64,000 bases of DNA from a virus. Taxonomy: Duplodnaviria; Heunggongvirae; Uroviricota; Caudoviricetes. Numbering within the stretch: the first letter of the stretch is position 1; every line of letters begins with the position of its first letter. The notes beneath the pieces are model-generated. The model did no database searches. It was given only the letters and a program-made list of their open reading frames with translations, and had not been told where the DNA came from. Where the stretch lies: IMG/VR virus record IMGVR_UViG_3300038499_000012, positions 1-64,000 of that record; one strand, given 5' to 3'. Positions 407 through 63,476 of this stretch are shown here, one piece after another. Made by a program: the position numbers and the translations under genes.

Positions 407-1207
407 ATGAAGGGGATCTTGATTAAAGCAGCCAAAAATCTATATGACCTACTTCTGGGTAAGGATCCCGAGGAAGAAAAGACCGTCCAGGAGAAGATTC
501 AAAGTGCTGTACAACGAGAGCTTGAGCTCGCAAACCTCAAGGAGACCACAGCTACCACAGCTATTTCCGCGGCACTGACCTACCGTAAGGAACTGGCCAA
601 ACTTGTTGCTCAGTCTCAAGAACTCCAAGTCCAGGCCCTCAAAGCCCAGAAAGCCGGAGAGGAAGACAAGGCCAAACGAATCCTCGCCCTGAGAATGGCT
701 ATTGATGAAAAGATAGCGGCCCAGACCGACCAATATCAAAAGTCGGATGCCGTAGCCAACAATGCTATCGTGGCTGCTAAAAAACAGTTCAAGAAAGCCC
801 AAGATGCATCCCAAGACCTTCCGAGAAAAATCATGCAGCTTGAAGTTAATAGTATGATGGACAAAGCCATAGCCTTTGAGAAGGACACAGGTTGGAAAAT
901 GTCCGCTCAGGAGAGCTACAAGGCCTTGGCAGATTCCATCGATCTGAAAACTGCACAACTTACAGCCCGAGCTCTGATTGAGGATTCATCTCAATTAGGG
1001 CTGGATGAAGAGGTCGGGAATGTGATAAAAGAAGGGCGATTCGAAGAAGAGTACAAGAAGCTACAGCAGGACTCTGCTATAGTAAGGGATGCCGACTACA
1101 CAGTCGTAGATAATGTGGCTACAACGGCTGCCAAACTTCTGGCCGAGCCGGCTTTTGGTGGTACTGTTCCAGGGCTTGAGGCTACCATTCCAAAGAAACT
1201 TACATGA
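407..1207 (+). CDS. PspA/IM30 (phage-shock protein A)-like coiled-coil protein
   Basis: ORF with RBS aaagggg. N-terminus LLGKDPEEEKTVQEKIQ... and long Q/A/E/K heptad coiled coil resemble E. coli PspA ([20 protein letters not shown]...). Confidence 0.4.
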   Translation: MKGILIKAAKNLYDLLLGKDPEEEKTVQEKIQSAVQRELELANLKETTATTAISAALTYRKELAKLVAQSQELQVQALKAQKAGEEDKAKRILALRMAIDEKIAAQTDQYQKSDAVANNAIVAAKKQFKKAQDASQDLPRKIMQLEVNSMMDKAIAFEKDTGWKMSAQESYKALADSIDLKTAQLTARALIEDSSQLGLDEEVGNVIKEGRFEEEYKKLQQDSAIVRDADYTVVDNVATTAAKLLAEPAFGGTVPGLEATIPKKLT

Positions 1208-1455
1208 GAATCAAACAGGCTATCACAGAGCTACAGAGGGCTCTGAAGAAGGTCGGAAATGTACGGATTCTAGTTGATACAGAGGCTGGAGAGTTCCCCT
1301 GTCACATGGTGGATGTAGACCACTTTACCGGCAGTGATGTATCAGAAAGTGGGGGAAAGGCCTACTGTCTTGTAACGTTAGATCCGGAAGTCATGTGTAT
1401 GGTACATCCTGTGCCTCCTCGGGCACAACCTTCAGTAAGGAAACACAAAGTATGA
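1204..1455 (+). CDS. hypothetical protein
   Basis: ORF whose start overlaps the upstream stop (ATGA). Confidence 0.3.
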   Translation: MRIKQAITELQRALKKVGNVRILVDTEAGEFPCHMVDVDHFTGSDVSESGGKAYCLVTLDPEVMCMVHPVPPRAQPSVRKHKV

Positions 1456-1655
1456 GTATAGAAAGACATCCGAACTTTCATGCATGCCAGTTTGCAGCGG
1501 AAATAACAGCATCTTATTTCGATTGTCTGAGAAATGAGACAGCAAAACAAGAACACCCTGACGTCACGCGGGCCATCGTTGAATTCGTATCATAAATCGA
1601 AGCGAGAGTTGATGAAACAGTGGCCTCTAACACCACAAAAGCTGAGTGAATATTT

Positions 1656-2108
1656 ATGTGCATGTGTTGTTCAGCAAAAGCACGGACTATCAAAAGGGAT
1701 ATCCTCCCAGGCTACAACCTCTTAAGGGCTACTGTAGATGTTGATGCATATTCCTCAGAGCTCTCAGTAATGACTCGTGAGGGCGTTGGACTCTCGTGGC
1801 CCAAGGGATGGTACGCCCTGCAGCGCTGGAATGACCCTGATATCATCTTTGAGCATAAACCAGCACCCGACCCACTTCAATTAGGAAAGCTCAACGCCAA
1901 CACACATCCTAAAGAATTCGAAGCCTGGAAAAAATGGGCAGATAATGCTGAAATTACAGAAAAATCTCTAACGCTCCCTGCCGATGTGGGATACTTTTTC
2001 GTGAGAGCCTGTAAGAAGGCTGGATATCGAAATCGAGACGGAAGATTGTCGTTCTGGTTAGTTGATTACTTGGGACGACAGCTCAAGCGAAAGGCAAGGT
2101 CCGTATGA
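1656..2108 (+). CDS. hypothetical protein
   Basis: 150-aa ORF; true start may lie downstream of the track start. Confidence 0.3.
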   Translation: MCMCCSAKARTIKRDILPGYNLLRATVDVDAYSSELSVMTREGVGLSWPKGWYALQRWNDPDIIFEHKPAPDPLQLGKLNANTHPKEFEAWKKWADNAEITEKSLTLPADVGYFFVRACKKAGYRNRDGRLSFWLVDYLGRQLKRKARSV

Positions 2109-2290
2109 CCCAAAGAGAAATGTTTGAAAAGTCCTTTCAGAGACCATGCAACTATTTTGAACTCTCTGGAGAAAGCCAGTGGGCCATCGATAAAGAATTG
2201 GGAATTCTAGACTGGGATGGAAAAGACCTGTCGAAAGCGGATAAGCTCAGATTCAAGAACCATTACAATAAGGAAAAAAGGCTTAAATGA
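2105..2290 (+). CDS. hypothetical small protein
   Basis: ORF with start overlapping the upstream stop (ATGA). Confidence 0.25.
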   Translation: MTQREMFEKSFQRPCNYFELSGESQWAIDKELGILDWDGKDLSKADKLRFKNHYNKEKRLK

Positions 2291-2631
2291 AAACCCACAA
2301 GCTAAAGACTCTGCCGGAGTATTTCAAAGCCCTCAAGGAAGGCTCCAAACCTTTTGAAATACGCAAAAATGACACGGACTTCCAGGTGGGAGACGAGCTC
2401 ACGCTGGCTGAATGGGACCCCATAGGAAAGAAAGAAACCGGTCACTACGTGGGCTGTCGAGTCACGTACGTCTTGGACAGCTCCTCATTTCCTGAAGGAC
2501 TCAAAGACGGTTACGTAATAATGGGCACCCAAATAAAAGAAGTCTGGATCAACCCCAACCTCGTTCCTTATCCGGAAGTTTTCACCAGGGAGTCTTGGAA
2601 AATGGGTGCCGTGGGCGTGATGGGAGTTTGA
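2287..2631 (+). CDS. ASCH/PUA-like domain protein
   Basis: GxKxxExR motif (GSKPFEIRKND) typical of ASCH domains; size ~110 aa. Confidence 0.45.
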   Translation: MKTHKLKTLPEYFKALKEGSKPFEIRKNDTDFQVGDELTLAEWDPIGKKETGHYVGCRVTYVLDSSSFPEGLKDGYVIMGTQIKEVWINPNLVPYPEVFTRESWKMGAVGVMGV

Positions 2632-2883
2632 ATGGCAGGATTCCTCGATAGCTATGAGTGGGAAGATTGGGACTTAGCCGAGTATGCCCTCGGTGAATCT
2701 TTAGGCATTTTACCTAAGGGCGGTTTTCCTGTAACTCATAATTGGGTAGTAACTACTGATACTCCTATGGGGAGGTTGTTGGGTAAAATGCTTCGTGAAC
2801 TTATTGATATAGGTTATTTAGAAACTGATGTAGATGATGACCTCCGCATCCGAAGATGCTCCAACTGGAAACTATCCCAATGA
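2632..2883 (+). CDS. hypothetical protein
   Basis: ORF immediately following the upstream gene. Confidence 0.3.
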   Translation: MAGFLDSYEWEDWDLAEYALGESLGILPKGGFPVTHNWVVTTDTPMGRLLGKMLRELIDIGYLETDVDDDLRIRRCSNWKLSQ

Positions 2884-3101
2884 AACCTTTCATCCTATTG
2901 GTGGCTACTGTAGATGGATTATATGGGACGGCAACTCAAGAAAAAACAGATTCAAAAGGTTCACGGTGCCAGTAGACCTACTAAACCTACACCGAAAAGG
3001 TTGAACTCTATAGTCACCGTGAAATCAGAAAAAATAACTAAGAATATTTTCGCTATGGCAGACATAGAACATGTGTAACATCCTTGACGTAGCTAACGTC
3101 A

Positions 3102-3392
3102 GTGTGGCGGGATTCCTCGATACAAAAAATGACTATAACAATGAAATCTCTCATCATCCTCATCACCTTCCTGAGCGTAGCGTCCGCAGAGTGCTACCTC
3201 AAAGCAGTCATCACAGCCTCCGGGACCAAAGGACTGTTCAGGACCCCTTACACCGTCGTACGTACCATCCAAGATACCCCCCAACTCCTACAGATAGACG
3301 GCATCAACGCCGGTGCCCGTGGGGATACCGTCACCGTGCATACGGGATGTGGCGGGACGTGTGAAAGAGGATTTTGCTGGGAAATAAAATAG
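3102..3392 (+). CDS. small secreted Cys-containing protein
   Basis: Signal-peptide-like MKSLIILITFLSVASA. Real start probably the internal Met (MTITMKSL). Confidence 0.3.
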   Translation: MWRDSSIQKMTITMKSLIILITFLSVASAECYLKAVITASGTKGLFRTPYTVVRTIQDTPQLLQIDGINAGARGDTVTVHTGCGGTCERGFCWEIK

Positions 3393-3434
3393 ACTTATAC
3401 CGTATGACCCTTCTGAAAGTAAAGGATAGTTAAA

Positions 3435-3740
3435 ATGACCCTGGGACAACGCATGCTTTTAGCTATAGCTAAAGAGCACATCGAACAAAGCAATACATCA
3501 GGAGCTCTGGACATCCTTTCCGCCATCCTTAAAGGAGATGGAGGCCCTTCTTCAGACATCACCGTGTACATCCGTAAGGATCAGGGGGAAATCATTCTGG
3601 GTACTTCTGAAGAAGGTATCCAAGGCAAGTACTTTGGGCCTATGGTGGCTAACTCCTCTCGCTGCGAAGAAGAGTATGAAGTCGTACGTATGGCATCCCC
3701 CATATCCATTCAAATTCAACCACAAATCGTGATAGGATAG
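3435..3740 (+). CDS. hypothetical protein
   Basis: ORF with RBS aaaggatag. Confidence 0.3.
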   Translation: MTLGQRMLLAIAKEHIEQSNTSGALDILSAILKGDGGPSSDITVYIRKDQGEIILGTSEEGIQGKYFGPMVANSSRCEEEYEVVRMASPISIQIQPQIVIG

Positions 3741-3746
3741 ACTACC

Positions 3747-4193
3747 GTGGGCGGAGAAGTACTTCTTGTCTTGGAAAAGGGAGAGGTGCATAAGCTTAGA
3801 AGATTTTTCGACATCAATCCAACAGTCTTCATAGAAGGTGATGATGGTATCTATTCTGTGGAAGCACCTACAAAAGGCGACGGATGTTGGATCGAGTTCA
3901 GAGGAGGAAATAAAGTTCAGGTAGGCTACCAAATATTTGACTTATGCTCAGAATGGGCCTTGGCTGTAGCCTGTGGCATCAGGGATAATTTCAAAGTCTT
4001 AAAAGGTGGTTGGGACTCAGTTGGGTATTGCAAAGATTTTTTCACTACCCATCCATTCAGGGCCAAGATAAGAGTGCTGCAGAGATTCCTGAAAGAAAAA
4101 CCCAATGCCGCTTCATTAGAATCCATAAAAGACTACAGAAAATACAAAAAAATGTATACCAAAAGAGTAGAAGAAATATTCAGAAGCGTATAA
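3747..4193 (+). CDS. hypothetical protein
   Basis: ORF. Confidence 0.3.
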   Translation: MGGEVLLVLEKGEVHKLRRFFDINPTVFIEGDDGIYSVEAPTKGDGCWIEFRGGNKVQVGYQIFDLCSEWALAVACGIRDNFKVLKGGWDSVGYCKDFFTTHPFRAKIRVLQRFLKEKPNAASLESIKDYRKYKKMYTKRVEEIFRSV

Positions 4194-4209
4194 AGAAAGA
4201 GAGTGATCT

Positions 4210-4884
4210 ATGGAACTTATGAAATCCCTGATCTGTGACTGGCATAATGCCTTCTTCACAGCAAATATTGTGTTCTGGATCATTTATCTGTTCATTACAC
4301 TCGTCGGAGGCTCGGACGGGTCAGACGTAAGCCACGATACAGACATGGATGGACACTTATTCTCAGGACACGATGTTCATCACGATGTCAGTCATGACGG
4401 GCACCCCAACATTACCAGTAATTTCCTGAACTTTTTAGGTATCGGACGATGCCCCATGAGTATCGTCTTCATGATCATGGGCATAAGTTTTGGATTCACA
4501 GGACTTGTGTGCAATACCGTCTTTTCATTCTTACGAATCATTCCAGCAGGCCTCTACTTCTTTCTATCCGCAATCATAGCTCTGATAGTATCCATGATCA
4601 TAACCAGCGCCTGCTCCCGGGTCGTAGCCAAGATAATGCCTAAGAAAGGAACCACAGCCATCGAACTCAGTAGTCTTGTAGGCCGATACGGAGAATCCTC
4701 AATCACCATAGACAGTAAAAGCGGCCGTGCTCGCGTCCAGGATCAGTATGGAACACTGCACAACATCTATTGCCGTATATCAAAAGATGATCAACCCATT
4801 CCACCTAACACAGAAATACTGATATTGCTTCGTGATGAAGAAAATGTCTTTGTTGTTACCAAAAAGCCCGGCTATCAAGCATAG
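4210..4884 (+). CDS. NfeD/YqiJ-like inner-membrane protein
   Basis: Multi-TM N-terminus plus OB-fold-like C-terminus. NFLNFLGIGRCPMSIVFMI... and ...GTLHNIYCRISKDD... resemble E. coli YqiJ. Sits directly upstream of the flotillin gene, as in the yqiJK pair. Confidence 0.5.
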   Translation: MELMKSLICDWHNAFFTANIVFWIIYLFITLVGGSDGSDVSHDTDMDGHLFSGHDVHHDVSHDGHPNITSNFLNFLGIGRCPMSIVFMIMGISFGFTGLVCNTVFSFLRIIPAGLYFFLSAIIALIVSMIITSACSRVVAKIMPKKGTTAIELSSLVGRYGESSITIDSKSGRARVQDQYGTLHNIYCRISKDDQPIPPNTEILILLRDEENVFVVTKKPGYQA

Positions 4885-4922
4885 GGCCCCTATATCCACA
4901 TACCACATAAAAGGAGTCTTGG

Positions 4923-6812
4923 ATGAAACTCAAAGTTTCTCTCACACTGATGCTGTTGACAGGTGTCGGAATCATCGCCCTGTCCATATTCGCAATCCCC
5001 GGAAATCTTTCCAAAATTATCTGGTCAGCAGTCGGATTGGGTATCATCGTCATCGCCGGCATAGGTCTTATCATCAGCACCCTCTATGTCAAAGCCAAAG
5101 GTAACCTCGCATATGTGAAAACCGGATCCGGGGGCCTGGAAGTCATCAAAGATAAAGGACGCATCATCATAGGCTTCCTGCATGAGATCATACCCGTGTC
5201 TCTGGAAACCATGAAGATTACCGTAGAACGAACCGGTAAGGAGTCACTGATAACCCTCGATAAGATGCGTGCGGAAGTCACCGCCGAGTTCTACATCCGC
5301 GTTAAAGCCGACGCAGATCAAGGAGATGGCAAGAAACCTATCTACGGAGGCATACAAACCGCAGCGAGAACTCTGGGTGATAAGATAGCATCCCGACGTA
5401 AAAATGATCAAGGAAGCGTCCTGGCAGCACAAACAGAAGCCGTCAAAGAACTCGAGAAGGAAAAGCTCATCGACGCCCTACGCACCGTAGCAGCCAAGAT
5501 CAGCTTGGAAGATCTCAACCTGAAACGCGATGAGTTCAAGAAAGCCGTTATGGAAGTGGTCAAAGATGGCCTCGAACAAAACGGCCTCGAACTGGAAGAC
5601 TGCACAATATCCTCTCTGGATCAGGCCCCCTCGGCCGTTCTGGATCCCAATAACTCCTTCGATGCTCAGGGTCTCAAGAACCTGCAACAAATCATCTCCC
5701 AAGCATCAGTGAAGACCAATGAACTGAGACGGACCGCGGAACTGCAGATCAAAAAGCAAGACGTAGAAACACGTAAAGCCATTCTTGATCAAGAGCAAGA
5801 CCAGAAGTTCAAGGAAGCAGATCAGGCGAAACAAATCCGTGCCTATACCGCCGAACAGAACAGAGTAGGATCCATGGCGGAAATAGCCTCCCAGGAAGAA
5901 GTAGCCAAAAGAGGTATCGCCAAAGACCAAGCCATCGAAACAGAGACCGTCCTTAAAACCCAAAAGGTCCAAATGGCAGTGGTTGAACAGACCAGAGCCG
6001 TTCAGACCGCGACTATTGAACAACAGAAATCCACAGAACTTGCGGACCGGTCAAAACAGATTGCTATAGCCCAAAAAGACGCCGAACGGGCTACGGTAGA
6101 CCAAAAACGTGCAGAGGCCGAAGCCCTAGCCGAAAAAGCCCGCCAAAACATCGAAACGGTCAAAGTCACTGAGACGGCCGAACGTCAGAAAAGTAAGCTC
6201 GTCATCGACAAACAGGCGCAAATCGAGCAATCACGCCAGGAAGAGCAGATGAAGGCCGACGTCAAGGCCTACACAACCGAGAAGGAAGCCCAGGGACGTA
6301 AGCAAGCTGCTGAAGCCGATTATCAAGCCCGGGTCAAAGCTGCTCAGGCCGATAAGGAAGCCGCCATGATGATTGCCGAAGGTTCCCGGGCATCAGCTAT
6401 GGTACCTGTCGAGGTCGCTCAGAAACAGGTTGAAGTCGATACCGCCCGAATAGCCAACGTTCTCAAACCCGAGCTCGAAGCCAAGTCCAATCACCAGAAG
6501 GTGTCAGTGGAATTGGAACTCGGGAAGCTGCAGATCGTGGCTCAACAGACTATTGGTGTCGAGTTCGCCAAAGCTATGGGTAGCATGACCTCCAAGGCCA
6601 ACATGACCATCTTCGGAGATCCCAGTACCCTCGCCACTATGTTTGAAAAGTTCTCCAAGGGCATGGGAATGGGGAAGATGGTAGAGGGCTTCCTACATAA
6701 CCCTGAGGCTGTATCGGCCATTCAGGGGCTCGTAGAGAAGGCTGGAGGAACTGTGGGCGGAATCGTGGACCGTCTCCTTCCCAAAAAGGATCCGACATCT
6801 GATAAGAAGTAG
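4923..6812 (+). CDS. flotillin-like SPFH/band-7 protein (YqiK/FloT-like)
   Basis: N-terminal TM segment, SPFH-like segment (LAYVKTGSGG...IIPVSLETMKITVE), then a very long EA/Q-rich coiled coil typical of flotillins. Confidence 0.6.
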   Translation: MKLKVSLTLMLLTGVGIIALSIFAIPGNLSKIIWSAVGLGIIVIAGIGLIISTLYVKAKGNLAYVKTGSGGLEVIKDKGRIIIGFLHEIIPVSLETMKITVERTGKESLITLDKMRAEVTAEFYIRVKADADQGDGKKPIYGGIQTAARTLGDKIASRRKNDQGSVLAAQTEAVKELEKEKLIDALRTVAAKISLEDLNLKRDEFKKAVMEVVKDGLEQNGLELEDCTISSLDQAPSAVLDPNNSFDAQGLKNLQQIISQASVKTNELRRTAELQIKKQDVETRKAILDQEQDQKFKEADQAKQIRAYTAEQNRVGSMAEIASQEEVAKRGIAKDQAIETETVLKTQKVQMAVVEQTRAVQTATIEQQKSTELADRSKQIAIAQKDAERATVDQKRAEAEALAEKARQNIETVKVTETAERQKSKLVIDKQAQIEQSRQEEQMKADVKAYTTEKEAQGRKQAAEADYQARVKAAQADKEAAMMIAEGSRASAMVPVEVAQKQVEVDTARIANVLKPELEAKSNHQKVSVELELGKLQIVAQQTIGVEFAKAMGSMTSKANMTIFGDPSTLATMFEKFSKGMGMGKMVEGFLHNPEAVSAIQGLVEKAGGTVGGIVDRLLPKKDPTSDKK

Positions 6813-6836: not shown

Positions 6837-7538
6837 ATGCTCACAAAGATAACGACCTACTGTACCATGGGCTGTACGCACTGCTTGGAAGATGCGACAG
6901 TCCATGGTACGCATATGTCTGAGGAAACCTTCATAGCTGCTCTTGATTTCATCACGAAACACGACCTAAAGTTCATTCTGATCAGCGGAGGAGAACCTAC
7001 CGACCATCCTTTCTATGAGCGTTTCATAGGCCTGATACCTCCTGGAATAAAGGCCATCGTTCTGAGCAACGGCCTGTTCACTCTTGATGAACGGCGTCGT
7101 TTCTTGAACATGCCTGTTGATTATCAGATCATCAATGACCCTGCCTATTACCCAAAGATGGTTCCTCGAATAGAACAGGAAAACGTCCTGTACGATAATA
7201 AGGTCTTTGGAAACATCTACCCATTAGGACGTGCAAAAACTAATGGTCTCGAAGCTACTCGTCAGAGTCCCTCCTGTTACAACTTTAGGGCCCTGGTAAA
7301 GAATAGAAGAGACTTCATTGAGGGACTTTTGACTCTCAGAACTATGGGTAAAATGTGTAGTCCTTCTATTGATGTGGAAGGGAACCTACTTGCCGGGGAA
7401 TGTAGATTCTGTTCCAAGGTCGGGACAGTCTGGGATTCAAATATACGACTCACACAAAACTGCCTAGACCTCAAGTGCAATCGCTGTGGACTGTTCGATA
7501 ATCTCAGCCCAGCACTTAGAGCTCAGCTCAGTTGCTAA
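6837..7538 (+). CDS. radical SAM domain protein
   Basis: CxxxCxxC (CTMGCTHC) near the N-terminus, GGEPT motif, C-terminal Cys cluster. Confidence 0.5.
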   Translation: MLTKITTYCTMGCTHCLEDATVHGTHMSEETFIAALDFITKHDLKFILISGGEPTDHPFYERFIGLIPPGIKAIVLSNGLFTLDERRRFLNMPVDYQIINDPAYYPKMVPRIEQENVLYDNKVFGNIYPLGRAKTNGLEATRQSPSCYNFRALVKNRRDFIEGLLTLRTMGKMCSPSIDVEGNLLAGECRFCSKVGTVWDSNIRLTQNCLDLKCNRCGLFDNLSPALRAQLSC

Positions 7539-14476: not shown

Positions 14477-16342
14477 ATGATACAAAACGAAATCGACTTC
14501 TGCAGAAAAATTGTTGACCTTGCTGATGCAATCAAATTCCATACCTATTCCGTTCCTGCCGTGACCAAATCCAAACTGAATCCCAAGGGTAAAAAGGCAA
14601 AGCAGAAGGTTTTTCCGGCCTACCGTGCAATTCTCCAACCTGATGGACTTACCTTGTTGCCCCAGCAATATCGTAACGAGAACGTCTTAGAACATGCCTA
14701 CGCCCTTCAATACCGAAACTGTCCAGCCGATACCTCAGAATCCCGAGCAATCTACGGCTCAGATATCCGATTGGAAGTTCGAAAGAAGAAAGAGATCTGG
14801 GTCCGAAATCTTGAAACTCCGCTACTCAATAGCATAGTCTCTTCAGAACTCAGGACCATCAAAAATGCCCTAGCTCTGAGTTCTAAACGGATCCTGGAAT
14901 TCTACCAAAAACGAATGGATGAGTTCACCAATAGGGACCAGAACGGCAACACCCTAGACGATAACGAAGACATCGTATGCGGAATCTTCCTACACATAGA
15001 CTGTTCAATCCTTGGTTACGAACATTGGTACGAGATCCCCGGTGTACTTTCCGCTTCAGATACAGCCGAAATCATGAGGATCACCAACGAAGTTGGTGAA
15101 AAGAAGAAAGAGGCCGCATTTTTGGCCGTACCTGGGGAAGAATGCTATTCACTAGTCAAAAGTCTTCTCAATACGGTTGCATCCGGGGATGAGTCCTCAG
15201 ACAACCAGTTTCAGGATTTTGATTTGGCCGCACGACACAAATCATTCTCGTTAACGTCAGACGATAGACGAATCGTCGCTTTCTATTGGTCAAAAACGAT
15301 GAACATGCTCCGTGTTTCTATTCCCAAGACAAAAGGAGAATATTTCTTCAGAGTTGTGCCGTGCGGTGATTTCAGTCCTATGAATGCCCAAATGTTTATT
15401 GATAACCAAAAAGCATTCAGGGGCAAGTTTGATACCCAAGAGAAAGCCGAAAGTGGGGTATCAGAAGAGGACGATAATATCGAAATTATGCCTGACGAGC
15501 CTATTGATGGGTACGATAAAAAGATCTACAACATGGCCCAACAGGCCCCCTCGGGAATCACCTCGTTCGATATAACCCTTATGCACCGGGAATCCCATGG
15601 ACAGACAAATGTCTCAGAACTATCCAGACTCTACAGAAGTTCGTTCTGCCGGCAACTCAAACGTATCGAGGCGGTCTCGGAAGAAGTCACAAAAAAATAC
15701 AAGTGCACTTGGGAACCCCAGATATGGTCCGCACTGAATACCATCTACTCTCGGTGTGAAAAACGATATCTCAATATCATCGGGCAGATTTTTATGAAGT
15801 TATGGTCCGGAAGCTACAGAGGAATAGCTTCCCTTAAAGAACTTTTTATTGACGGAATACAATACAACATTCGCAATTCGGAAGGGCCTGGTGAATACGC
15901 CCTTCGTGTGGCGTACTTATTCTTGAAAAAACTCAACACAACGGAGGAGCAGATGGATGAAAAATCTTACCGTCTAGGAGAACTCTGTGCCGAGTTCTGC
16001 TGGCCCTTGATCTATCAGATCGGAAGTTTTGATAAGCAGTATTCAGGGTACATCACAAGGAAAGTCAAAAGTGTTGATGAGGTCACTGAGTTCATTGTTT
16101 TCTCCGAGGGAAAACTGATCCTGCATGCAGGTGAAATGATGTATGCCACTGGAAAAGGAGGTCAATTTCCTATCGGAGTAGTTCCAGATACAAGCTACTA
16201 CGCACTGGAAGCTCGAAAGCTCATCAAGGAAGGAATCGAAAAGTTTGATGCGCTTTCCTTTGCCGACGGATACTACTTCATGCGTGGTAACAAATTGTAC
16301 ACTTCCAAAAAAGGAGGCCAGAGTGAAGAATCAAGAGGTTAA
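14477..16342 (+). CDS. putative Cas8-like large subunit (divergent; possibly encodes Cas11 from an internal start)
   Basis: First gene of the cas operon, 621 aa, immediately upstream of cas7 with overlap. I see no recognisable motif; the assignment is positional only. Confidence 0.35.
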   Translation: MIQNEIDFCRKIVDLADAIKFHTYSVPAVTKSKLNPKGKKAKQKVFPAYRAILQPDGLTLLPQQYRNENVLEHAYALQYRNCPADTSESRAIYGSDIRLEVRKKKEIWVRNLETPLLNSIVSSELRTIKNALALSSKRILEFYQKRMDEFTNRDQNGNTLDDNEDIVCGIFLHIDCSILGYEHWYEIPGVLSASDTAEIMRITNEVGEKKKEAAFLAVPGEECYSLVKSLLNTVASGDESSDNQFQDFDLAARHKSFSLTSDDRRIVAFYWSKTMNMLRVSIPKTKGEYFFRVVPCGDFSPMNAQMFIDNQKAFRGKFDTQEKAESGVSEEDDNIEIMPDEPIDGYDKKIYNMAQQAPSGITSFDITLMHRESHGQTNVSELSRLYRSSFCRQLKRIEAVSEEVTKKYKCTWEPQIWSALNTIYSRCEKRYLNIIGQIFMKLWSGSYRGIASLKELFIDGIQYNIRNSEGPGEYALRVAYLFLKKLNTTEEQMDEKSYRLGELCAEFCWPLIYQIGSFDKQYSGYITRKVKSVDEVTEFIVFSEGKLILHAGEMMYATGKGGQFPIGVVPDTSYYALEARKLIKEGIEKFDALSFADGYYFMRGNKLYTSKKGGQSEESRG

Positions 16343-17309
16343 GCAGGTCGAGGTCGAGACCAATGGCGTTAAGAGGGCGGATCTTCTGATTCTGTGGACC
16401 AGCAGAAATTGCATCGTGAACGGTGATCCCTGGACAGGAGAGCAGCGCTATGATGAAGCCACAGGCAGACCTCTGTGCTCTGATGTCAGGCTTAAGGCCT
16501 TCGCCAGATGGTATGCAGACCACATACACCTTTTCGAACCCGGCCATCCTGCTCTGGATGTGTTTTTCAAGGATTTCACGCAGAGTGATATAGCTCTAGC
16601 CAGGGCCGAGAAAGAAGGGGCATCAGGAGCTTCCGTTCGGGTGCGTATGCTCAAGGCCAAGTACAAACCGGAAGAGGACTTGAAGACTCTGGTTCTCAAG
16701 TGCCTCGATTCTCGTGGTTTCGGAAACGTCGTCACGGAGAAGAAGACTCCGGTGCATCTCACAGGCCCGATCCAGTTCGAGCAGCTCAATCCGACTCTGC
16801 ATCAAGTGAAGCTGATGGAAAACCAGAATACCTGTCATCTTCCATCAGATATCAAGAACAATGCAGGAGCAATAGCCACCAGCAGCCTGGTTCCCTTCAG
16901 CATCAACCAAGTGGTCGGCGGGGTCTATTCAATCCTCGCTCTCGAAACCGGCCTGACGGAAGATGATGTCATCCTCATTCTTCGGTGCCTGTGGCGGGGA
17001 ATAAACTGTTACAAGAGCCGGAGCAAGATGGGGCAGAATTCAAGACTGATCTTGAAGATCAACTATCAAGATCTGGCAACAGCAACCGCCGATCTGAATA
17101 CCTTGGTCACACTCAAGAATTCAGAAGACAAAGGCCTTCGCAGAATAGACCAAGCCGTATGGGATTTTTCGAGGCTGGACAATCTCATGAAGGACCCCAA
17201 TGTCGTAACGGTTGAGTATCGTGCGGATTCCTTCATGAAGCCGGTACTCCTGGGTGCCATCTCGAAAGATACGGTTTCTAAAATGGTCGAGTTGCAAGGT
17301 CTCTGGTAA
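16323..17309 (+). CDS. cas7: Cas7 (Cascade backbone subunit; DevR/Csd2/Csh2-like N-terminal motif)
   Basis: GTG start 5 nt after aaggagg; track start 16245 is probably too far upstream. N-terminal NGDPwtgeqRyDeaTGrplcSDVrLKafaRwY resembles the NGDPDxxNxPRiDpeTGxGLVTDVCLKRKIRNY motif of I-B/I-C Cas7 and is also similar to CasC. Confidence 0.55.
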   Translation: MKNQEVKQVEVETNGVKRADLLILWTSRNCIVNGDPWTGEQRYDEATGRPLCSDVRLKAFARWYADHIHLFEPGHPALDVFFKDFTQSDIALARAEKEGASGASVRVRMLKAKYKPEEDLKTLVLKCLDSRGFGNVVTEKKTPVHLTGPIQFEQLNPTLHQVKLMENQNTCHLPSDIKNNAGAIATSSLVPFSINQVVGGVYSILALETGLTEDDVILILRCLWRGINCYKSRSKMGQNSRLILKINYQDLATATADLNTLVTLKNSEDKGLRRIDQAVWDFSRLDNLMKDPNVVTVEYRADSFMKPVLLGAISKDTVSKMVELQGLW

Positions 17310-17638
17310 GAAAAGAGAAGGTAAAGACCTTACACGGAAAAACGTGTAGGGTCTTACCAACTCATAGGAGTACTCGGTCAATTACCACCAGCACAAGGCT
17401 GGAGGCTTGTCCTTCCAAATTTCGTCCAGAGAACGATGACTCTAATGAGTCATAACGGAGGACTATAAGCCAATTGACTGTGGCTCATTATCATACAGCA
17501 TGCTGTATGATAATCACTTGTACTCAGAACTCTGTGAGTACTCGCTACAGTTCCTAAGATACATTATGGAAGAGAGCACGAGTCATTACTCGCTTCCTCC
17601 GCCACCACAAGGGTAGCGGTTTCCGCTCGTGAGGTTTT
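17310..17638 (+). other. structured non-coding spacer inside the cas operon (hairpins and a perfect 28-bp palindrome)
   Basis: No ORF. Imperfect ~16-bp hairpin with 6-nt loop (ggtaaagaccttacacg/cgtgtagggtcttacc) at ~17320-17358. atgactcTAATgagtcat at ~17436-17453. Perfect 28-bp palindrome attatcatacagca|tgctgtatgataat at ~17487-17514. gtactcagAACTctgtgagtac at ~17520-17541. Stem ggaag...cgagtCATTactcg...cttcc at ~17568-17610. Confidence 0.5.
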
Positions 17639-18385
17639 ATGAAAGCCGTAACCATACGAATTTCTGGTAGCCGGGCGCATTTCAAGCGGCCAAATACCAA
17701 CAACAATCCATGTACTTATGCCGTTATTCACAAACCAGCGCTTTTTGGAATCATGGGCGCTGTCTGTGGAATTCAGAGGGCAGAAATGGCATCCCTCTAT
17801 CCTAAGCTGTGCAGTGAAAATAAATCTGACGGCATAAAGATGGCCCTTCGAGTTCTAAATCCTATTTCAAAAGAGGCACATGGATTCACAAAACGAAATG
17901 TCACTCCAGTTCCTGAGCGCCAAGGGGATTTGAAGGGCTTTAAGAACAATTCCCGTGGCAGAAGGTTCTGTGAAGTCCTTCGAGATCCTTCTTATGAGGT
18001 CACACTGGGATCTCAGAATCCTCAATTCGTTGAGATATTATCGACCTTCAAAAATCAGATACTAGCCAATAGGTCGATTTATCCACACTACCTCGGCAGT
18101 ATTAACTGCATGTGTCAGCTGGCCTTCATATCGGACTCAGAAGTATCGGAAGAAAAAAACGGTGAGTTCTCTACCCGACACATTGTTACGAAAACAGGCC
18201 ATGAAATTTCTGACACAGGAGATATGGATATTCTGTGTGAGAATATCCCGATCGCAGAAGATGCCAATAGGAGATACACAGCCACTGCCGATGTCTATTG
18301 TTTCTGGGAAGGCCTACTGGACGTAAAAGGTTCTTATCAGACCATTTCCAACCAAACCGGAGATGCCACAGCATGTTTCATCTAA
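17639..18385 (+). CDS. cas5: Cas5
   Basis: N-terminal ISGSRAHFKRP...ALFGIMGAVCGIQR resembles E. coli CasD (LAGPMQAWGQP...LLGLLGACLGIQR) and the AhFrxP signature of Cas5 proteins. Confidence 0.6.
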   Translation: MKAVTIRISGSRAHFKRPNTNNNPCTYAVIHKPALFGIMGAVCGIQRAEMASLYPKLCSENKSDGIKMALRVLNPISKEAHGFTKRNVTPVPERQGDLKGFKNNSRGRRFCEVLRDPSYEVTLGSQNPQFVEILSTFKNQILANRSIYPHYLGSINCMCQLAFISDSEVSEEKNGEFSTRHIVTKTGHEISDTGDMDILCENIPIAEDANRRYTATADVYCFWEGLLDVKGSYQTISNQTGDATACFI

Positions 18386-20961
18386 GCTCCTATACGCTCA
18401 ACTGCATCTCGCACCCAGGCAAAAAACTCCTTCGTCATTCACAAGGTACGACGAAGGGACTCCTTGATCTATTGCCCAAAATAGCACGCCACTTAAAAAA
18501 AGTTGCTGCTGTGGTGGGCAATTTTCATGATACAGGAAAATTCCTTAATCGATATTTTCAGGACAAGCTTAGAGGAATCCTTTATAAAGACAAGTACACA
18601 CATCACTCCTACCTATCCATGATGTCCCTTTTGGGTTTTTTGCTTCCCGGTAATCATCAATACCGCTCCTACAGGGATATGGTAATAGCCCTGATATGCA
18701 TCATTAAACACCACGGAGGCATTCCGAATCTGGATAAACTAATCAACGACAAAGAACTAAAACAAATGCGGGATTACATCACAGAAGTCCAGTCAAAAGG
18801 ACTTCTTCCAGATATAACGGAATTCAGGCATCAAATAGGATTCGATGGAGACACGAAGCCTGTGTCAGAAATCAAGGACAGCTTGATACGATGTATTTTT
18901 TCTAGGGCAGATAAAATAAACAGCATTTTTACTCGAATCAGCGAGGAAGATCGATTGGGATTTTGGCTTGATTTGAGAATGGTGTTCTCCTGCTTGGTGG
19001 CTGCGGACAAGCAGGATGCAGGAGATCACAAACTTGATATAAATGACAAATTCCTTCGAAAGAAATTTCATAAAGGTATTAAGGCTTACATTGATAATCT
19101 TTCTAAAGTAGTAGCGAAAACGGAGAACGCTAGGAAACTGAACCTTATCCGAACCGAGATGAGAAAAGTGGCGGTACAGAACCTGATAGAAGTCGTAGCC
19201 GCCAATCCTGATAGGCGTCTATTTCAGCTCACATACCCGACAGGAGCGGGAAAAACGGTCATTCTGTACTGCTGTGGCTCGGTGATTCAACTGAAGAAAG
19301 GTTCCCGAAGAATAATATATTCCGTACCTTTTCTTTCTATAACGGATCAGGTTGCTACCATCATAGAGGAAATCTTCCCAAACGAGGAAGATAACATTCA
19401 GCGCATTGATTCCAAGGCCCAACCGGATGAAGATTTGGACTATGACCTGACATCAAGCGGTGATGATGTATCACCCTTGATGGAGGCGCTAAAAAAGTTC
19501 ATAAAAAACTTCATAAAGTTTACACTTAAAAAAGATATCAGTGACATCTCCGCAAACAAAATTCTTAAACAAGAACTCCAGGAGATTTGCTTCTCTTACC
19601 CATTGATCACAACTACATTCGTGCAGATGTTCCAAACTCTGACTACAGCCTCCAACCGTGGACTGATGAGATACAACGGGCTCTCTGGGTGTATATTTCT
19701 GATAGATGAAATTCAGGCCCTCCCACCGAGGCTCTACAACTTTTTAGTGGCACTTCTGGATGCCTTCTGCCGGCGCTTTGATAGCTATGCAGTTATATCA
19801 TCCGCAACAATGCCTTATTTCGATATACCGACGAAGTCAAAAGAAGGCCAGAAAATGTTTCCTGGCTACATGCCCCCTATCGAAATAGGAGACATCAGCT
19901 ACTTTGATGACCCCATCTTCAATCGGTATGATATCGTCGGTATAAAGACCAAGATGACCGTCGATAGTATTGCAGAGAAAATCCGCAAAGAGGAAAAATC
20001 CACTCTAGTGATATTGAACACGAAGAAGGATGCCAAAAGAGTCTATAAAAGAGTCAAAAAGACCGGAGAGGATGCAATTCTGCTTACAAGTTTGAATTGT
20101 GACCGGCAGGATATTTTAGACCTGTGTCAAAAAAAGTTAGATAACCATGAGCGCTTCTTTCTCATATCTACAAATCTCATAGAAGCTGGTGTGGATATCG
20201 ACTTCTGCACAGTATATCGAGAAATAGCCCCCCTGCCGAATATCATTCAGAGCGCAGGTCGAGGTAATAGAAATGGCAATCTCTACCCAGATAGAGCAAC
20301 CATTTATGTTTTTGATTTGATCGACGACAAGGGACGATCCCGATCAAAGTGTATATACAATGGCGATGTCGATGGACCATCCTTAGAATATGCTAAAAAA
20401 ATATTCCTTCTATCCGACAGGATTGCCACACCTGAATTAGAACTCCTGTCCCTTCAAAAGGCTTTCTTTATGGAACAGGGAGAAAATCTCTATTTTGGAA
20501 CTTGGGATTTCTCGATGCCTATCGAGGATGAGGAAGAAGATGAAGAAGAATACAAAACAAAACCAAAAAGGATGAACTTCGTAGATCTCATCAATGGATT
20601 CCAGTATGGAGACATTGGAAGATTTAGGCTGATTCCTGAATGCCGCTACGGAGCGCAGGTTCAATTCTATGTTCCAGAATCGGACGAGGATAAGAGATTT
20701 GAGAAGTTGGTGGAGTATCAGGCCGCGATTCAACAATCGGAAGAAGAGGACGTCCCTATTAAGACAAGGCTGGCTAATAAAAGGAAACTCCATCTACACC
20801 TTCGGGAAATGATGCCTCGGGTAGTTCAGATGAATCTTGGCGAAAAGGACCCTCCTCTTTCAGAGTTAGCAGAGTATGAAGGTATGGTGAGCCATTTGTA
20901 TAAACTAAAGCTGAAATACTACAGTAAGGAATACGGTATAACCTGGGAGGAACAACAATGA
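18373..20961 (+). CDS. cas3: Cas3 (HD nuclease + SF2 helicase)
   Basis: HD motif (VVGNFHDTGKF). Walker A YPTGAGKT. DExQ box LIDEIQALP. SAT motif SATMP. Helicase C-terminus QSAGRGNR. Start taken as the Met overlapping the cas5 stop. Confidence 0.8.
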   Translation: MFHLSSYTLNCISHPGKKLLRHSQGTTKGLLDLLPKIARHLKKVAAVVGNFHDTGKFLNRYFQDKLRGILYKDKYTHHSYLSMMSLLGFLLPGNHQYRSYRDMVIALICIIKHHGGIPNLDKLINDKELKQMRDYITEVQSKGLLPDITEFRHQIGFDGDTKPVSEIKDSLIRCIFSRADKINSIFTRISEEDRLGFWLDLRMVFSCLVAADKQDAGDHKLDINDKFLRKKFHKGIKAYIDNLSKVVAKTENARKLNLIRTEMRKVAVQNLIEVVAANPDRRLFQLTYPTGAGKTVILYCCGSVIQLKKGSRRIIYSVPFLSITDQVATIIEEIFPNEEDNIQRIDSKAQPDEDLDYDLTSSGDDVSPLMEALKKFIKNFIKFTLKKDISDISANKILKQELQEICFSYPLITTTFVQMFQTLTTASNRGLMRYNGLSGCIFLIDEIQALPPRLYNFLVALLDAFCRRFDSYAVISSATMPYFDIPTKSKEGQKMFPGYMPPIEIGDISYFDDPIFNRYDIVGIKTKMTVDSIAEKIRKEEKSTLVILNTKKDAKRVYKRVKKTGEDAILLTSLNCDRQDILDLCQKKLDNHERFFLISTNLIEAGVDIDFCTVYREIAPLPNIIQSAGRGNRNGNLYPDRATIYVFDLIDDKGRSRSKCIYNGDVDGPSLEYAKKIFLLSDRIATPELELLSLQKAFFMEQGENLYFGTWDFSMPIEDEEEDEEEYKTKPKRMNFVDLINGFQYGDIGRFRLIPECRYGAQVQFYVPESDEDKRFEKLVEYQAAIQQSEEEDVPIKTRLANKRKLHLHLREMMPRVVQMNLGEKDPPLSELAEYEGMVSHLYKLKLKYYSKEYGITWEEQQ

Positions 20962-21482
20962 AAGCATTTATTGTCGAGGGCGTCACATTAGGAGAAGACA
21001 GTTATACCAAGCATCAGCAGATTGCCGACCTGATTGATAGCAAAAATACTCGATTCCATGAAAGAGAAGACGGTTCCATCGTTCTTCTCTCAGAAACAAT
21101 GCCTGAGGGATCCAAATACACGGCCGTTGGAATGTCTTATTCTAAGGGTGAGATTCTTTCTTTCTCTATCAGAGCTTGTGTCTCAAAACGGTCAGGGGAT
21201 AAAGAAATTCCAATAACCAATATGACAGAGATAGTCAATTGGATAACCAGAAAGGCCAGAGAAAATGGTTTTGTTATCAACTTTTTTGACAATATTGAAG
21301 GCCCTTGTGTCAGAGATGTGACCAAGCCTGGATTTGTTTTCAAAATCAGTACCGTAGATTTTGCCGGCAACCTTACAGTCCTTGACAAGGACTTATTCGA
21401 CCGGGCCTTGAGAACCGGCATTGGAAGAAAAAAAGCTTTTGGCTGTGGAGTTCTCTGTGTTACGCGTAGTACAGATGTTTGA
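20958..21482 (+). CDS. cas6e: Cas6e (CasE) crRNA endoribonuclease
   Basis: C-terminal G-rich loop GIGRKKAFGCGVLCV matches E. coli CasE GIGPAKSMGCGLLSL. ~175-200 aa. ATGA overlap with cas3. Confidence 0.65.
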   Translation: MKAFIVEGVTLGEDSYTKHQQIADLIDSKNTRFHEREDGSIVLLSETMPEGSKYTAVGMSYSKGEILSFSIRACVSKRSGDKEIPITNMTEIVNWITRKARENGFVINFFDNIEGPCVRDVTKPGFVFKISTVDFAGNLTVLDKDLFDRALRTGIGRKKAFGCGVLCVTRSTDV

Positions 21483-21638
21483 TTTCCCGCCCACGCGGGA
21501 GTTTAATAATGAGACGCACTACTGTGCAGGAAGATCTTTCCCGCGTGACGCGGGAGTTGAATGTATAGAGTGTCGAGAACAGATGCAGCGTCATGATCTT
21601 TCCCGCATCACGCGGGGGTTGAATTAAGAGATTATTAA
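21483..21638 (+). CRISPR. mini CRISPR array (3 repeat-like units, 2 spacers) between cas6e and cas1
   Basis: Units tttcccgcccacgcgggagtttaat, ctttcccgcgtgacgcgggagttgaat and ctttcccgcatcacgcgggggttgaat, separated by spacers of ~28 and ~35 nt. Confidence 0.6.
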
Positions 21639-22508
21639 ATGATCTACACAGATTTAAGTGGCCGCCTACCTTTTGTCTATGTAGAAATGGGAAAGCTTAG
21701 GGTATCAGGAGCTTCCCTTGTTTTTGTCAGTGAATCCTCTGTGATTGCTATCCCCGTAGGTAGGATAGCTGCCGTATTCCTTGGACCTGGAATTTCTGTT
21801 ACGGACAGGGCTGTTCATTTGGCCGCTACTGCCGGAAGTATGCTTCTATGGGTAGGTGAGGGAATTACCAAGTGCTACGCAGTGTTACCTACACACCATC
21901 AATCCTCAAAGAATCTTTTATCCCAAATTGAGCTCCTCACCAAACATAAGACTAAAATCTTAAAACGATACACACTGCTTAGGTTTGGAAAAAAACTGCT
22001 GGCTTGGGAACGGCTTAATGAAAATAAGATACGAGGGATAGAGGGCAGCTTCATGAGAAAGGTATATGTAGAATGTGCTAAAAAATTCGGTATTCCCTAC
22101 GGAGGTCGATCCAAAGAGGGGTCCTGGGAAAACAATTCGGTCTATAATAAAGCCATCTCTATATGTAATTCTTACTTATACGGCATGGCTACAGCGGTTT
22201 TGATTGCCTTGGGTTACTCCCCAGCTCTTGGAATTCTACATAATGGAGACTCCTTCTCATTGTCCTTTGATATTGCCGACCTTTATAAACACAAGTTTTC
22301 GATACCTTTGGCATTTGAAGCGTCAAAAAAAGTCTTGGGATCGGATAACATCAGAATAGAAAAAGAAATCAGGATCATGGCTTTAGAAAAAATGAAGGGC
22401 ACTAATTTCGTTAAAGCTATGGTAGAAGATATTCAGGAAATATTCGATGACGGTATTCATCACGAAAAGAATATCAACGAGGACGAGGCGACTTCTGTCA
22501 GCTTATAA
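21639..22508 (+). CDS. cas1: Cas1 (type I-E-like integrase)
   Basis: VGRIAAVFLGPGISVTDRAVHLAATAGSMLLWVGEG aligns closely with E. coli YgbT VGSVACIMLEPGTRVSHAAVRLAAQVGTLLVWVGEA. GIEGSFMRKVY and YGMATAVLIALGYSPALGILHNG are also conserved. Confidence 0.85.
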   Translation: MIYTDLSGRLPFVYVEMGKLRVSGASLVFVSESSVIAIPVGRIAAVFLGPGISVTDRAVHLAATAGSMLLWVGEGITKCYAVLPTHHQSSKNLLSQIELLTKHKTKILKRYTLLRFGKKLLAWERLNENKIRGIEGSFMRKVYVECAKKFGIPYGGRSKEGSWENNSVYNKAISICNSYLYGMATAVLIALGYSPALGILHNGDSFSLSFDIADLYKHKFSIPLAFEASKKVLGSDNIRIEKEIRIMALEKMKGTNFVKAMVEDIQEIFDDGIHHEKNINEDEATSVSL

Positions 22509-22734
22509 TGCTGAGGTATCTTTAGGGGTTTACGTAGGATACCACAACGAAGGCGTGTATATGCGTATTCTTAAATGGTTGAGAAAAAATATAAAGGGGA
22601 ATGAAAAAATACTTATATTGCGTCCGGATAAATCCTGGATTGGCTTCTCAGATGAGTATTTTAATTGGGAATCTCAAGCGGTGTACTTAGATGGTGTTAA
22701 GTTATATAAACCTCTTCATTATTCTTCCGAATAA
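22447..22734 (+). CDS. cas2: Cas2 (type I-E-like)
   Basis: MTVFITKRISTRTRRLLSAYNAEVSLGVYVG aligns with E. coli YgbF ...[22 protein letters not shown]. Overlaps the cas1 3' end. Confidence 0.65.
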   Translation: MTVFITKRISTRTRRLLSAYNAEVSLGVYVGYHNEGVYMRILKWLRKNIKGNEKILILRPDKSWIGFSDEYFNWESQAVYLDGVKLYKPLHYSSE

Positions 22735-22797
22735 CCCATGTTTTAGTGCCCGTTCTTTGAAATAACACATTGATGTAAAAGGACATACCCTTTAAGG

Positions 22798-25700: not shown

Positions 25701-26369
25701 AACCAGAAACGTTCTGTCTTTCCCGCGTCACGCGGGAGTTGAATACAATGTCATCTCAGGGTGGTGTACTGGCGAATCTGTCTTTCCCGCGTGACGCGGG
25801 AGTTGAATCCTTCTGGACATACATGCAGAGACCCAACAAAGGGGTCTTTCCCGCGTGACGCGGGAGTTGAATCCCGTACCCTCGTTCCACGCTATTGACA
25901 CGCCGGTCTTTCCCGCGTGACGCGGGAGTTGAATTTCCTCGGTCGGGAACGTCGTTTCCAGGTCGTCAAGGTCTTTCCCGCCTACGCGGGAGTTGAATAC
26001 GACTATGGGAAGCAAATCAAGGATGTCGTAATCTTTCCCGCATCACGCGGGAGTTGAATGTGGTAGGACCCTGTATCTCAGGCTGTATCTTAGGCCGAGA
26101 AGTCTTTCCCGCCCACGCGGGAGTTGAATCACCGGCGTACAGATGGGTGCTGCCATGCAGCAGTCTTTCCCGCGTAGGCGGGAGTTAAATTATTCGTTTG
26201 TGGACCATGCCTTGACCTAGTCTTTCCCGCGTCACGCGGGAGTTGAATAGCTGCCGCTTCTTTTGCAGCTCTCACCGTCGGTCTTTCCCGCCCACGCGGG
26301 AGTTGAATCACACCCTGCTGGAAGAACGTATGGTCCGTCACTGTCTTTCCCGCGTAGGCGGGAGTTGAA
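22798..26369 (+). CRISPR. CRISPR array, 58 repeats (28-29 nt) and 57 spacers (mostly 32-33 nt); leader on the cas2 side
   Basis: Consensus GTCTTTCCCGCGTCACGCGGGGGTTGAAT with hairpin cccgcg/cgcggg followed by an 8-nt handle (I-E style). Repeats 1-16 are identical; repeats 17-58 carry ...GCGGGAGTTGAAT with many loop variants (TGAC, CTAC, CCAC, ATCAC, ACCAC, CAAC, GTAGG). Degenerate repeat remnants extend to ~26500. Confidence 0.95.
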
Positions 26370-49117: not shown

Positions 49118-49351
49118 ATGGTCAGATTACCGAACAATAAGGTCAACATTACCTGGGAACAGCTGAAAGCCGCTACGGGTATGTCTGAGACCTTTTACAT
49201 TGAATTGAGTGAGTGCGAGAGGTACCACGACCTGAACGAGAGCTACAAGAAAACACGGGAACCGTACACGAAACCTGAATGCAGGACGATTAGTTTTCGG
49301 AAGGAACTCCATGAAACTGGCAACGGAAGCGGAAACGACCACTGTTTCTGA
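49118..49351 (+). CDS. hypothetical protein
   Basis: ORF with RBS aggaaggag. Confidence 0.3.
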   Translation: MVRLPNNKVNITWEQLKAATGMSETFYIELSECERYHDLNESYKKTREPYTKPECRTISFRKELHETGNGSGNDHCF

Positions 49352-52410: not shown

Positions 52411-52437
52411 CGTGTCACAATCATAAAAGGAGTGATT

Positions 52438-63431: not shown

Positions 63432-63476
63432 GGACCTGAACCCAAATCAGGTGGGTAGCCATTACCCTACACTCCG
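63395..63476 (-). tRNA. tRNA (type II-like long variable arm; isotype uncertain, anticodon loop TTTGGGT)
   Basis: Cloverleaf: acceptor CGGAGTG/CACTCCG, D-arm GGGT-AATGGCT-ACCC, anticodon stem CCTGA/TCAGG, variable hairpin TCCC-TAAC-GGGA, T-arm GCAGG-TTCGAGT-CCTGT, discriminator A, no encoded CCA. Confidence 0.55.

Follow-up and report, generated by a model that had tools for sequence, protein, structure and literature searches.

The DNA analysed here, which we call the window, is the first 64,000 nucleotides (nt) of the IMG/VR record IMGVR_UViG_3300038499_000012, from a tailed phage (Caudoviricetes). Close to its start lie three genes that together make up what we call the module. Gene X (407-1207) encodes a soluble, all-helical protein of 266 amino acids (aa) that is most probably a divergent member of the PspA/IM30 family, which has the ESCRT-III fold. 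It is followed at a distance by the gene for a polytopic membrane protein of the YqiJ type (NfeD2-like; 4210-4884, 224 aa, YqiJ_N domain) and the gene for a flotillin-like protein of the SPFH2/YqiK type (4923-6812, 629 aa, Band_7 domain). These open reading frames (ORFs) are exactly as given in an earlier first-pass annotation of the sequence, all on the plus strand. That annotation also grouped the three as a membrane module, and the grouping has proved stronger than could be known at the time: in cellular genomes X, YqiJ and flotillin form one contiguous operon, which, judging from the sequences, was captured by a phage as a unit.

The flotillin-like protein matches the Pfam model Band_7 (PF01145; E = 4e-11, 43.7 bits against a cutoff of 23.6) over residues 61-236. 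Its layout is that of a flotillin, with an N-terminal hydrophobic hairpin (residues 1-59), the SPFH domain (61-236) and a long helical region rich in A, E, Q and K (271-540). It has about 1555 homologues, and it aligns with more than 90% coverage to proteins that NCBI or JGI have named ‘flotillin family protein’ or ‘YqiK’; bacterial flotillin homologues, e.g. from the Planctomycetes, share about 40% identity over the full length. The separate Pfam flotillin-domain model and the NCBIfam models gave no match to it. With a Band_7 score above cutoff and full-length homologues of the flotillin/YqiK kind, the earlier identification as a flotillin-like SPFH protein can stand.

The YqiJ-type gene ends 38 nt upstream of the flotillin gene, a pairing that is kept in all cellular relatives examined. 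Its product matches the Pfam model YqiJ_N (PF21001; E = 1.9e-9, 38.1 bits, cutoff 23), while its score on YqiJ_OB (18.7 bits) falls under the cutoff of 25.4. Hydropathy places membrane segments at residues 13-35 and 72-143, a C-terminal soluble domain follows, and the alignment with cellular YqiJ proteins runs through to the C-terminus. YqiJ-type proteins are NfeD2 partners that co-evolve with SPFH2 flotillins (PMC2636767), and the equation of YqiJ with NfeD rests on this relationship. The earlier description of the protein as NfeD-like thus holds in the YqiJ/NfeD2 sense and fails in the strict one, as the Pfam scan returned no match to the canonical NfeD model and the OB domain stays below threshold. 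Taken together, the profile searches of this pair return YqiJ_N and Band_7, and not generic coiled coils or transmembrane helices alone. Between the first and second membrane segments (residues 35-66, window 4312-4407) the YqiJ-like protein carries a His/Asp-rich loop, DGSDVSHDTDMDGHLFSGHDVHHDVSHDGH, that may be metal-binding. The loop is longer and richer in HD repeats in homologues from the candidate phyla radiation (CPR), and Asp-rich in the Planctomycete one.

X taken alone matches nothing in Pfam, NCBIfam, PHROGs, PADLOC or the PDB sequences, and hydropathy indicates no membrane segment. A profile of its nine closest sequences recovers a family of 50 clusters among 1.84 billion cluster representatives, nearly all of whose members are 250-300 aa long and matched over the full length in one stretch. 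A nearly invariant C-terminal motif, A241..L245..F250-G-G252 (A..LL..P.FGG), lies beyond the PspA-like core. The residues that hold it (237-252, window 1115-1165) are a candidate partner-docking peptide.

We are confident in placing X within the PspA/IM30 family, on a highly divergent branch that has hitherto lacked annotation; the link is transitive, not direct. Among the 53 family members, 21 match PF04012 (PspA_IM30) singly, the best at 2.8e-15. The narrow X profile picks up three bridge proteins (P0144, P0146 and P0148) with E-values from 3e-12 to 3e-10, and these score 38.6, 33.1 and 34.5 bits on PF04012; with a cutoff of 33.9, P0144 and P0148 exceed it and P0146 lies below. A further bridge protein, P0140, matches X at 1e-17 and PF04012 at 8e-5, and is encoded in an X-YqiJ_N-Band_7 triad. 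A profile of all 53 members (A2) finds Synechocystis Vipp1 (7o3w) at 4.2e-9 over residues 10-237 and Nostoc Vipp1 at 3e-7. In order to avoid circularity, hhalign comparisons were made with the core of the family, its distant members and canonical Vipp1 plus PspA kept as separate sets, the canonical set being built from Vipp1 as matched in the profile search and an E. coli PspA sequence entered by hand. The core aligns with the distant members at 99.9% (E = 1e-37, 261 columns), and the distant members with the canonical set at 96.4% (E = 1.3e-9, 215 columns). Controls with reversed sequences give E-values of 0.1-0.6 over at most 39 columns.

An AlphaFold2 model of X built on a deep alignment, which included PspA-positive members, has a confidence (pLDDT) of 81, rising above 93 in the hairpin. 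Its helices a0 (residues 3-17), a1 (27-82), a2/3 (86-162), a4 (172-191) and a5 (207-225) follow the PspA/Vipp1 order, and an extra C-terminal helix spans 237-252. The alignments of the family to Vipp1 and PspA are collinear from a0 to a5. The hairpin tip of X, ALKAQKAGEEDKAKRILAL, resembles in pattern the PspA/Vipp1 tip, AKLALTNGEENLAREALA, and a ‘K-D-P-E’ hinge after the N-terminal helix resembles the PspA/Vipp1 ‘K-A-E-D-P’.

Several results weigh against this assignment. PF04012 has no match to X at E <= 0.1 or even E <= 1, and X does not reach the Pfam gathering threshold; the closest representatives (P0130-P0138) are not matched either. The narrow profiles are negative (A1 and A3 against PDB, A1 against Vipp1), the X-core profile misses PspA and Vipp1, and hhalign of the core with the canonical set gives only E = 0.0075 and 5% probability, collinear over the N-terminal 106 columns. 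Foldseek places Vipp1 and PspA on top of the PDB neighbours for both X models, at E-values of just 0.009-0.3, and generic helical hairpins score as well. The N-terminal helix is weakly amphipathic, with a hydrophobic moment of 0.23 against 0.42-0.54 for PspA and Vipp1. One could therefore argue that X is a generic coiled-coil partner of YqiJ and YqiK whose PspA signal is compositional, and the entry of a long repetitive coiled-coil protein (P0158) into the profile search at 3e-8 points the same way. Against this, the profile matches very few clusters, of nearly uniform length, two bridge proteins pass the PF04012 cutoff, the signal is lost when sequences are reversed, and the alignments run collinearly from a0 to a5; P0140, moreover, sits in the genomic context of X itself. 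We regard this alternative as improbable. The earlier PspA/IM30-like label for 407-1207 is thus upheld at the level of the family, through the transitive profile link to Vipp1 and PspA, and not by a direct PspA_IM30 match.

The operon is best seen in cells. In two loci, L001 and L002/L003, the order is an unannotated gene of 271 or 272 aa, a YqiJ_N gene and a Band_7 gene. X is a full-length homologue of the first of these in L001 and L002 (42-48% identity, E = 3e-57 and 5e-72), and across the triads it shares 42-64% identity with the gene directly upstream of yqiJ. Both loci are on Parcubacteria-type cellular contigs: L001 has ParAB, RelA/SpoT, TopA, DprA, HisRS and FtsA genes, and L002, which belongs to a Candidatus Portnoybacteria assembly, has GroES/EL, UvrA, UvrC and SecG. 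Contiguous triads also occur in L022, a 47.8-kb cellular contig with a PfkB kinase, an Na+/H+ exchanger, PCMT and SpoU, in L012, in the more distant L011, and in L009, a contig of phage or cell, where X, YqiJ and flotillin are 64%, 58% and 68% identical to those of the phage. Overall the flotillin is 58-68% identical to the triad copies, with 58-60% to its closest homologues on long contigs (L001 and L002), which are non-viral; the phage YqiJ shares 42-58% full-length identity with the YqiJ_N proteins of cellular triads, and 42-44% with the CPR ones. In every X-bearing locus with enough downstream sequence, a yqiJ gene lies at most 3.5 kb from X. A scan of GTDB genomes gave one locus.

The identity ranks are equal for all three proteins (L009 > L012/L022 ~ L002 > L001 > L011), and this congruence indicates that X, YqiJ and flotillin have a common history of descent and transfer. 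A distance tree places the phage flotillin together with P0001-P0004 and L009, in a group whose sister clade contains the copies from CPR and which is remote from the clade of the Planctomycetes. Parcubacteria-type contigs and a metagenome-assembled genome labelled Deltaproteobacteria/Thermodesulfobacteriota are equally close to the phage module, and no single donor is singled out. In L001 (12089-13638) and L002 (12054-13546) the triad is followed by a conserved, CxxC-rich protein of 335-344 aa, zinc-ribbon-like and reminiscent of B. subtilis YdjG, and then by a protein of 156-158 aa with a weak Pro_CA_2 match. We looked for counterparts of these two CPR genes in the phage and rejected the idea, as the window contains neither.

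In the phage the operon has been split. The 3.0-kb gap between X and YqiJ, absent from the contiguous cellular triads, is filled by an intervening block (1204-4193) of about ten small phage ORFs on the same strand with overlapping stop and start codons. The only one with a Pfam or PHROG match is a DUF3850/ASCH gene (2287-2631, plus strand; PHROG ‘RNA-binding protein’). This block is not part of the ancestral operon. The same arrangement is found in independent ENA, JGI and Logan assemblies, which argues against misassembly. The order YqiJ, flotillin, radical SAM, Dam methylase is conserved in a variant of the phage whose flotillin is 93% identical. At a synonymous distance (dS) of 0.6-0.7 between the two variants, the ratio of nonsynonymous to synonymous substitution rates (dN/dS) is 0.087 in YqiJ, 0.061 in flotillin and 0.058 in the radical SAM gene, a mark of strong purifying selection within the lineage of this phage.

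A second phage-like lineage (L006-L008 and L016-L019) retains X and YqiJ at 52% identity each, about 3.3 kb apart (780-6433 in L019). Besides a YopX gene and numerous small ORFs, its contigs hold an RNA ligase that is related to the one with which the window closes. The insert between X and YqiJ in L019 is unrelated to that of the window and includes an inosine-uridine nucleoside hydrolase. At the place of the flotillin there is a 295-aa membrane protein, and no SPFH gene was found within 4 kb, unfiltered searches with hidden Markov models included. Synteny in related phages, which the first-pass annotation had named as a check, holds for YqiJ and flotillin in the close variant; in the second lineage X and YqiJ occur without an adjacent flotillin. 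The pair that persists is X and YqiJ, with a changing set of genes in between, and flotillin in the second lineage is dispensable or encoded elsewhere.

On balance we favour the proposal that the phage captured a bacterial three-gene membrane-maintenance operon and expresses it to keep the cytoplasmic membrane of the host sealed and energised during infection. The polytopic YqiJ-type protein and the membrane-anchored flotillin would together make a scaffold at the cytoplasmic side of the membrane, and soluble X would be recruited to it. X would then polymerise on stressed membrane, as ESCRT-III-fold proteins do, and would limit the leakage caused by phage membrane proteins or by membrane-targeting abortive-infection effectors of the host. 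The sequences themselves show the identity of the domains and families, the origin from an operon, the retention in two lineages of phage and the purifying selection; the physical interactions, the polymerisation and the benefit to the phage are what we infer. PspA and Vipp1 share the ESCRT-III fold, form polymers on membranes and have a protective role there (PMC8281802). The linkage of PspA, SPFH and YqiJ proteins is documented in bacteria (PMC11237479, PMC8581546), where operons of PspA, a transmembrane band-7 flotillin and YqiJ occur and flotillins have been proposed to interface with PspA (PMC11237479). In B. subtilis, YdjG and YdjH recruit the SPFH protein YdjI, which is needed for membrane localisation of PspA (PMC8581546; bioRxiv 10.64898/2026.02.06.704340). 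The module also lies within a long plus-strand block of non-structural genes, the tail-fibre block being on the minus strand, which suggests intracellular use and not a virion component. That said, some findings count against the proposal. Mutation of yqiK in E. coli brings about no clear stress phenotype (PMC2636767), promoter and terminator scans of the phage were uninformative, and the second lineage, without its adjacent flotillin, indicates that the three proteins need not be an obligate trio.

Other functions are conceivable for the same genes. The flotillin and YqiJ could form a membrane microdomain or cage in which proteins of phage replication, assembly or lysis timing are brought together, with X as a family-specific adaptor or membrane-shaping factor and not a repair protein; this takes in the suggestion of the first-pass annotation that the module serves a compartment or virion assembly. 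Flotillins act as scaffolds (PMC2636767, PMC11237479), proteins with the ESCRT-III fold reshape membranes (PMC8281802), the C-terminal motif of X beyond the PspA core could be a docking peptide, and the genome is large, at 120 kb or more. Against this, the module shows no link to any client protein of the phage, cells have the operon with no phage involved, the two phage lineages carry wholly different genes between X and YqiJ, the second of them lacks an adjacent flotillin, and there is no sign of nucleus-like or internal-membrane genes within the window. We consider such a platform possible but unlikely. Less likely still is superinfection exclusion, by which the module would alter the host membrane against DNA entry or lysis by other phages. 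Many exclusion proteins are membrane proteins, and this phage is equipped for competition or defence, with a full type I CRISPR-Cas system (at least 42 repeats) and two DNA methyltransferases. However, the module has no homology to known exclusion proteins and no match in PADLOC, and its cellular homologues lie in housekeeping neighbourhoods, not in defence islands.

It might also be supposed that the genes are a non-functional passenger, or that phage and cell sequences were joined in assembly, since the closest homologues on long contigs are cellular. We give this hardly any credence: dN/dS is 0.06-0.09, GC content is uniform, the junctions with phage genes recur in three independent assemblies, and the genes are embedded among phage ORFs with overlapping start and stop codons. 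A narrower and doubtful form of the membrane-maintenance proposal is that the module, a divergent PspA with a flotillin/YqiJ recruitment platform of its own, is a minimal and self-sufficient ESCRT-III-like counter-defence that would reseal or stabilise the host membrane against depolarising abortive-infection effectors or a premature holin, perhaps in a large CRISPR-bearing phage of CPR bacteria. Such a host is suggested because the nearest cellular operons include those of Parcubacteria (CPR) genomes, and, if it is correct, membrane integrity could be especially limiting in these ultra-small cells.

Close parallels to the module exist in bacteria. The operons of PMC11237479 likewise link a PspA-family protein, a membrane-anchored SPFH/flotillin protein and a YqiJ-type (YqiJ/YuaF) protein with three transmembrane segments, but they are built on a CesT/Tir-PspA dyad, usually with an AAA+ ATPase. 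Neither CesT/Tir nor AAA+ domains turned up in Pfam searches of the phage region and of the neighbours of the cellular triads. The phage also differs in that its PspA protein belongs to a very divergent unannotated subfamily and its operon is split by about 3 kb. The module of phage and triads is an abbreviated variant of this CesT/Tir-PspA-flotillin-AAA+-YqiJ operon class. The functional model that we have adopted is that of B. subtilis pspA-ydjGHI (samGHI), in which an SPFH protein and integral membrane partners recruit PspA (PMC8581546). In contrast to the membrane-anchored flotillin of the phage, YdjI is cytosolic, and its partners are YdjG (zinc ribbons) and YdjH (TPM domain) rather than YqiJ, with no orthology to the phage proteins at the sequence level. 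No PspB, PspC, PspF or TPM/zinc-ribbon partners were found among the Pfam-scanned ORFs of the first 10 kb of the window. E. coli yqiJK (PMC2636767) has the same order of YqiJ and YqiK, the same YqiJ_N and Band_7 domains and the same N-terminal anchor and long coiled coil, but it has no PspA-like gene, and the phage proteins are distant from the enterobacterial ones. The Planctomycete copies are about 40% (flotillin) and 23% (YqiJ) identical to those of the phage.

Among deposited phages the only one with a YqiJ-flotillin pair is the Sinorhizobium jumbo phage Phosso (PV764938, 469 kb), where it also adjoins membrane-stress genes. Its proteins are about 30% identical to those described here, it lacks a PspA-like gene, and its cluster (L013, 355001-359181) is a different membrane/tellurite-stress set of YqiJ (annotated hypothetical), SPFH/flotillin, XpaC-like (Halogen_Hydrol) and TelA genes. 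Phosso is the outgroup in the tree, which indicates that it acquired its pair independently. SPFH ORFs in phages have been known since 2006: the T4-like phages 44RR, Aeh1 and RB43 encode SPFH/Band 7 proteins, with no YqiJ or PspA partners reported (PMC1524935) and no tblastn similarity to the flotillin of the window. Canonical PspA/Vipp1 matches just two unannotated metagenomic ‘Bacteriophage sp.’ records of the 50,697 deposited phage records, X and the bridge protein P0144 match none of them, and a fold search of BFVD with X gave no significant viral structural relative. The comparative-genomics papers on Psp that were consulted leave viruses unmentioned.

The association of PspA, flotillin and YqiJ in cells, and SPFH genes in phages, are thus already known. 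What appears to be new is the minimal operon without CesT/Tir and AAA+ proteins, the divergent branch of PspA, and the capture and splitting of the operon by phages. These results add envelope-stress and membrane-repair machinery to the host functions known in phages, in whose deposited genomes PspA-family genes are almost absent (2 of 50,697 records) and YqiJ-flotillin pairs are limited to one. Through its strict linkage to YqiJ/flotillin, the divergent PspA subfamily yields a compact system of three genes that lacks CesT/Tir, AAA+ and regulators and is well suited to studies of how SPFH scaffolds bring in ESCRT-III-like proteins. In the phages, with a split operon in one case and an apparent loss of flotillin in the other, we have natural ‘deletion and insertion experiments’ that hint at which partners are indispensable.

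Directly after the flotillin, as the first-pass annotation had noted, comes a small radical SAM gene (6837-7538, plus strand; 233 aa), with a CxxxCxxC motif at residues 9-16 and a Cys-rich C-terminus. It matches the Pfam model Radical_SAM in the N-terminal part that holds the motif (E = 1.5e-8, 35.4 bits, cutoff 29.5), and the adjacency to flotillin is kept in the 93%-identical variant. We considered it as a fourth member of the module and rejected it, as the cellular triads have no orthologue. An rSAM/SPASM neighbour of the L022 triad has only the generic core in common with it (E = 0.009), and the CPR loci have at this position a Cys-rich protein with no similarity to the phage gene.

The remainder of the window is that of a tailed phage, with three collagen-like tail-fibre genes, RIIA and RIIB, helicases and the two methyltransferases. 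An ENA contig of 79.9 kb begins with the 64 kb of the window, and a 120,760-bp JGI contig holds an identical X protein, which sets the genome size at 120 kb or more. No close relatives of the window were found by megablast among the deposited phages, and IMG/VR, scanned for relatives with X patterns, flotillin patterns and the CRISPR repeat, gave no match. RIIA lies at 49311-51212 and an RIIB-like gene at 52324-53523. In T4 these are membrane-associated anti-abortive-infection proteins, and their presence here would point to the same concern with membrane-level abortive infection as the module does. The ORF between them (51225-52379) has no PHROG match and possibly represents the N-terminal portion of an RIIB that is split or divergent.

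A phage-encoded type I CRISPR-Cas locus with its array, called complete with a candidate for the large subunit, occupies 14477-26248. It comprises this candidate (14477-16342, no Pfam match), Cas7 (16245-17309), Cas5 (17639-18385), the Cas3 helicase (18298-20961), a Cas6e-like gene (20958-21482) and Cas1 (21639-22508). The 29-nt repeat, GTCTTTCCCGCGTCACGCGGGGGTTGAAT, occurs in at least 42 copies with up to three mismatches, where none is expected by chance, spanning 21534-26248; it comes in two variants, and two copies lie upstream of cas1. Its spacers could identify the host or competing elements.

Some minor features lie at the two ends of the window. Upstream of X are about 400 nt of apparently non-coding DNA at the contig start (1-406), with a hairpin like the T-arm of a tRNA at about 230-272; ARAGORN and Rfam detected nothing in this segment. 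At the other end, a tRNA-Pro(TGG) on the minus strand (63395-63476) has an overlap of 37 nt with the 3' end of a plus-strand ORF (62556-63431) with HNH-endonuclease/resolvase-like matches. It is followed, again on the minus strand, by an RNA-ligase-like gene (about 63600-63998), a gene that is common to the L006 lineage.

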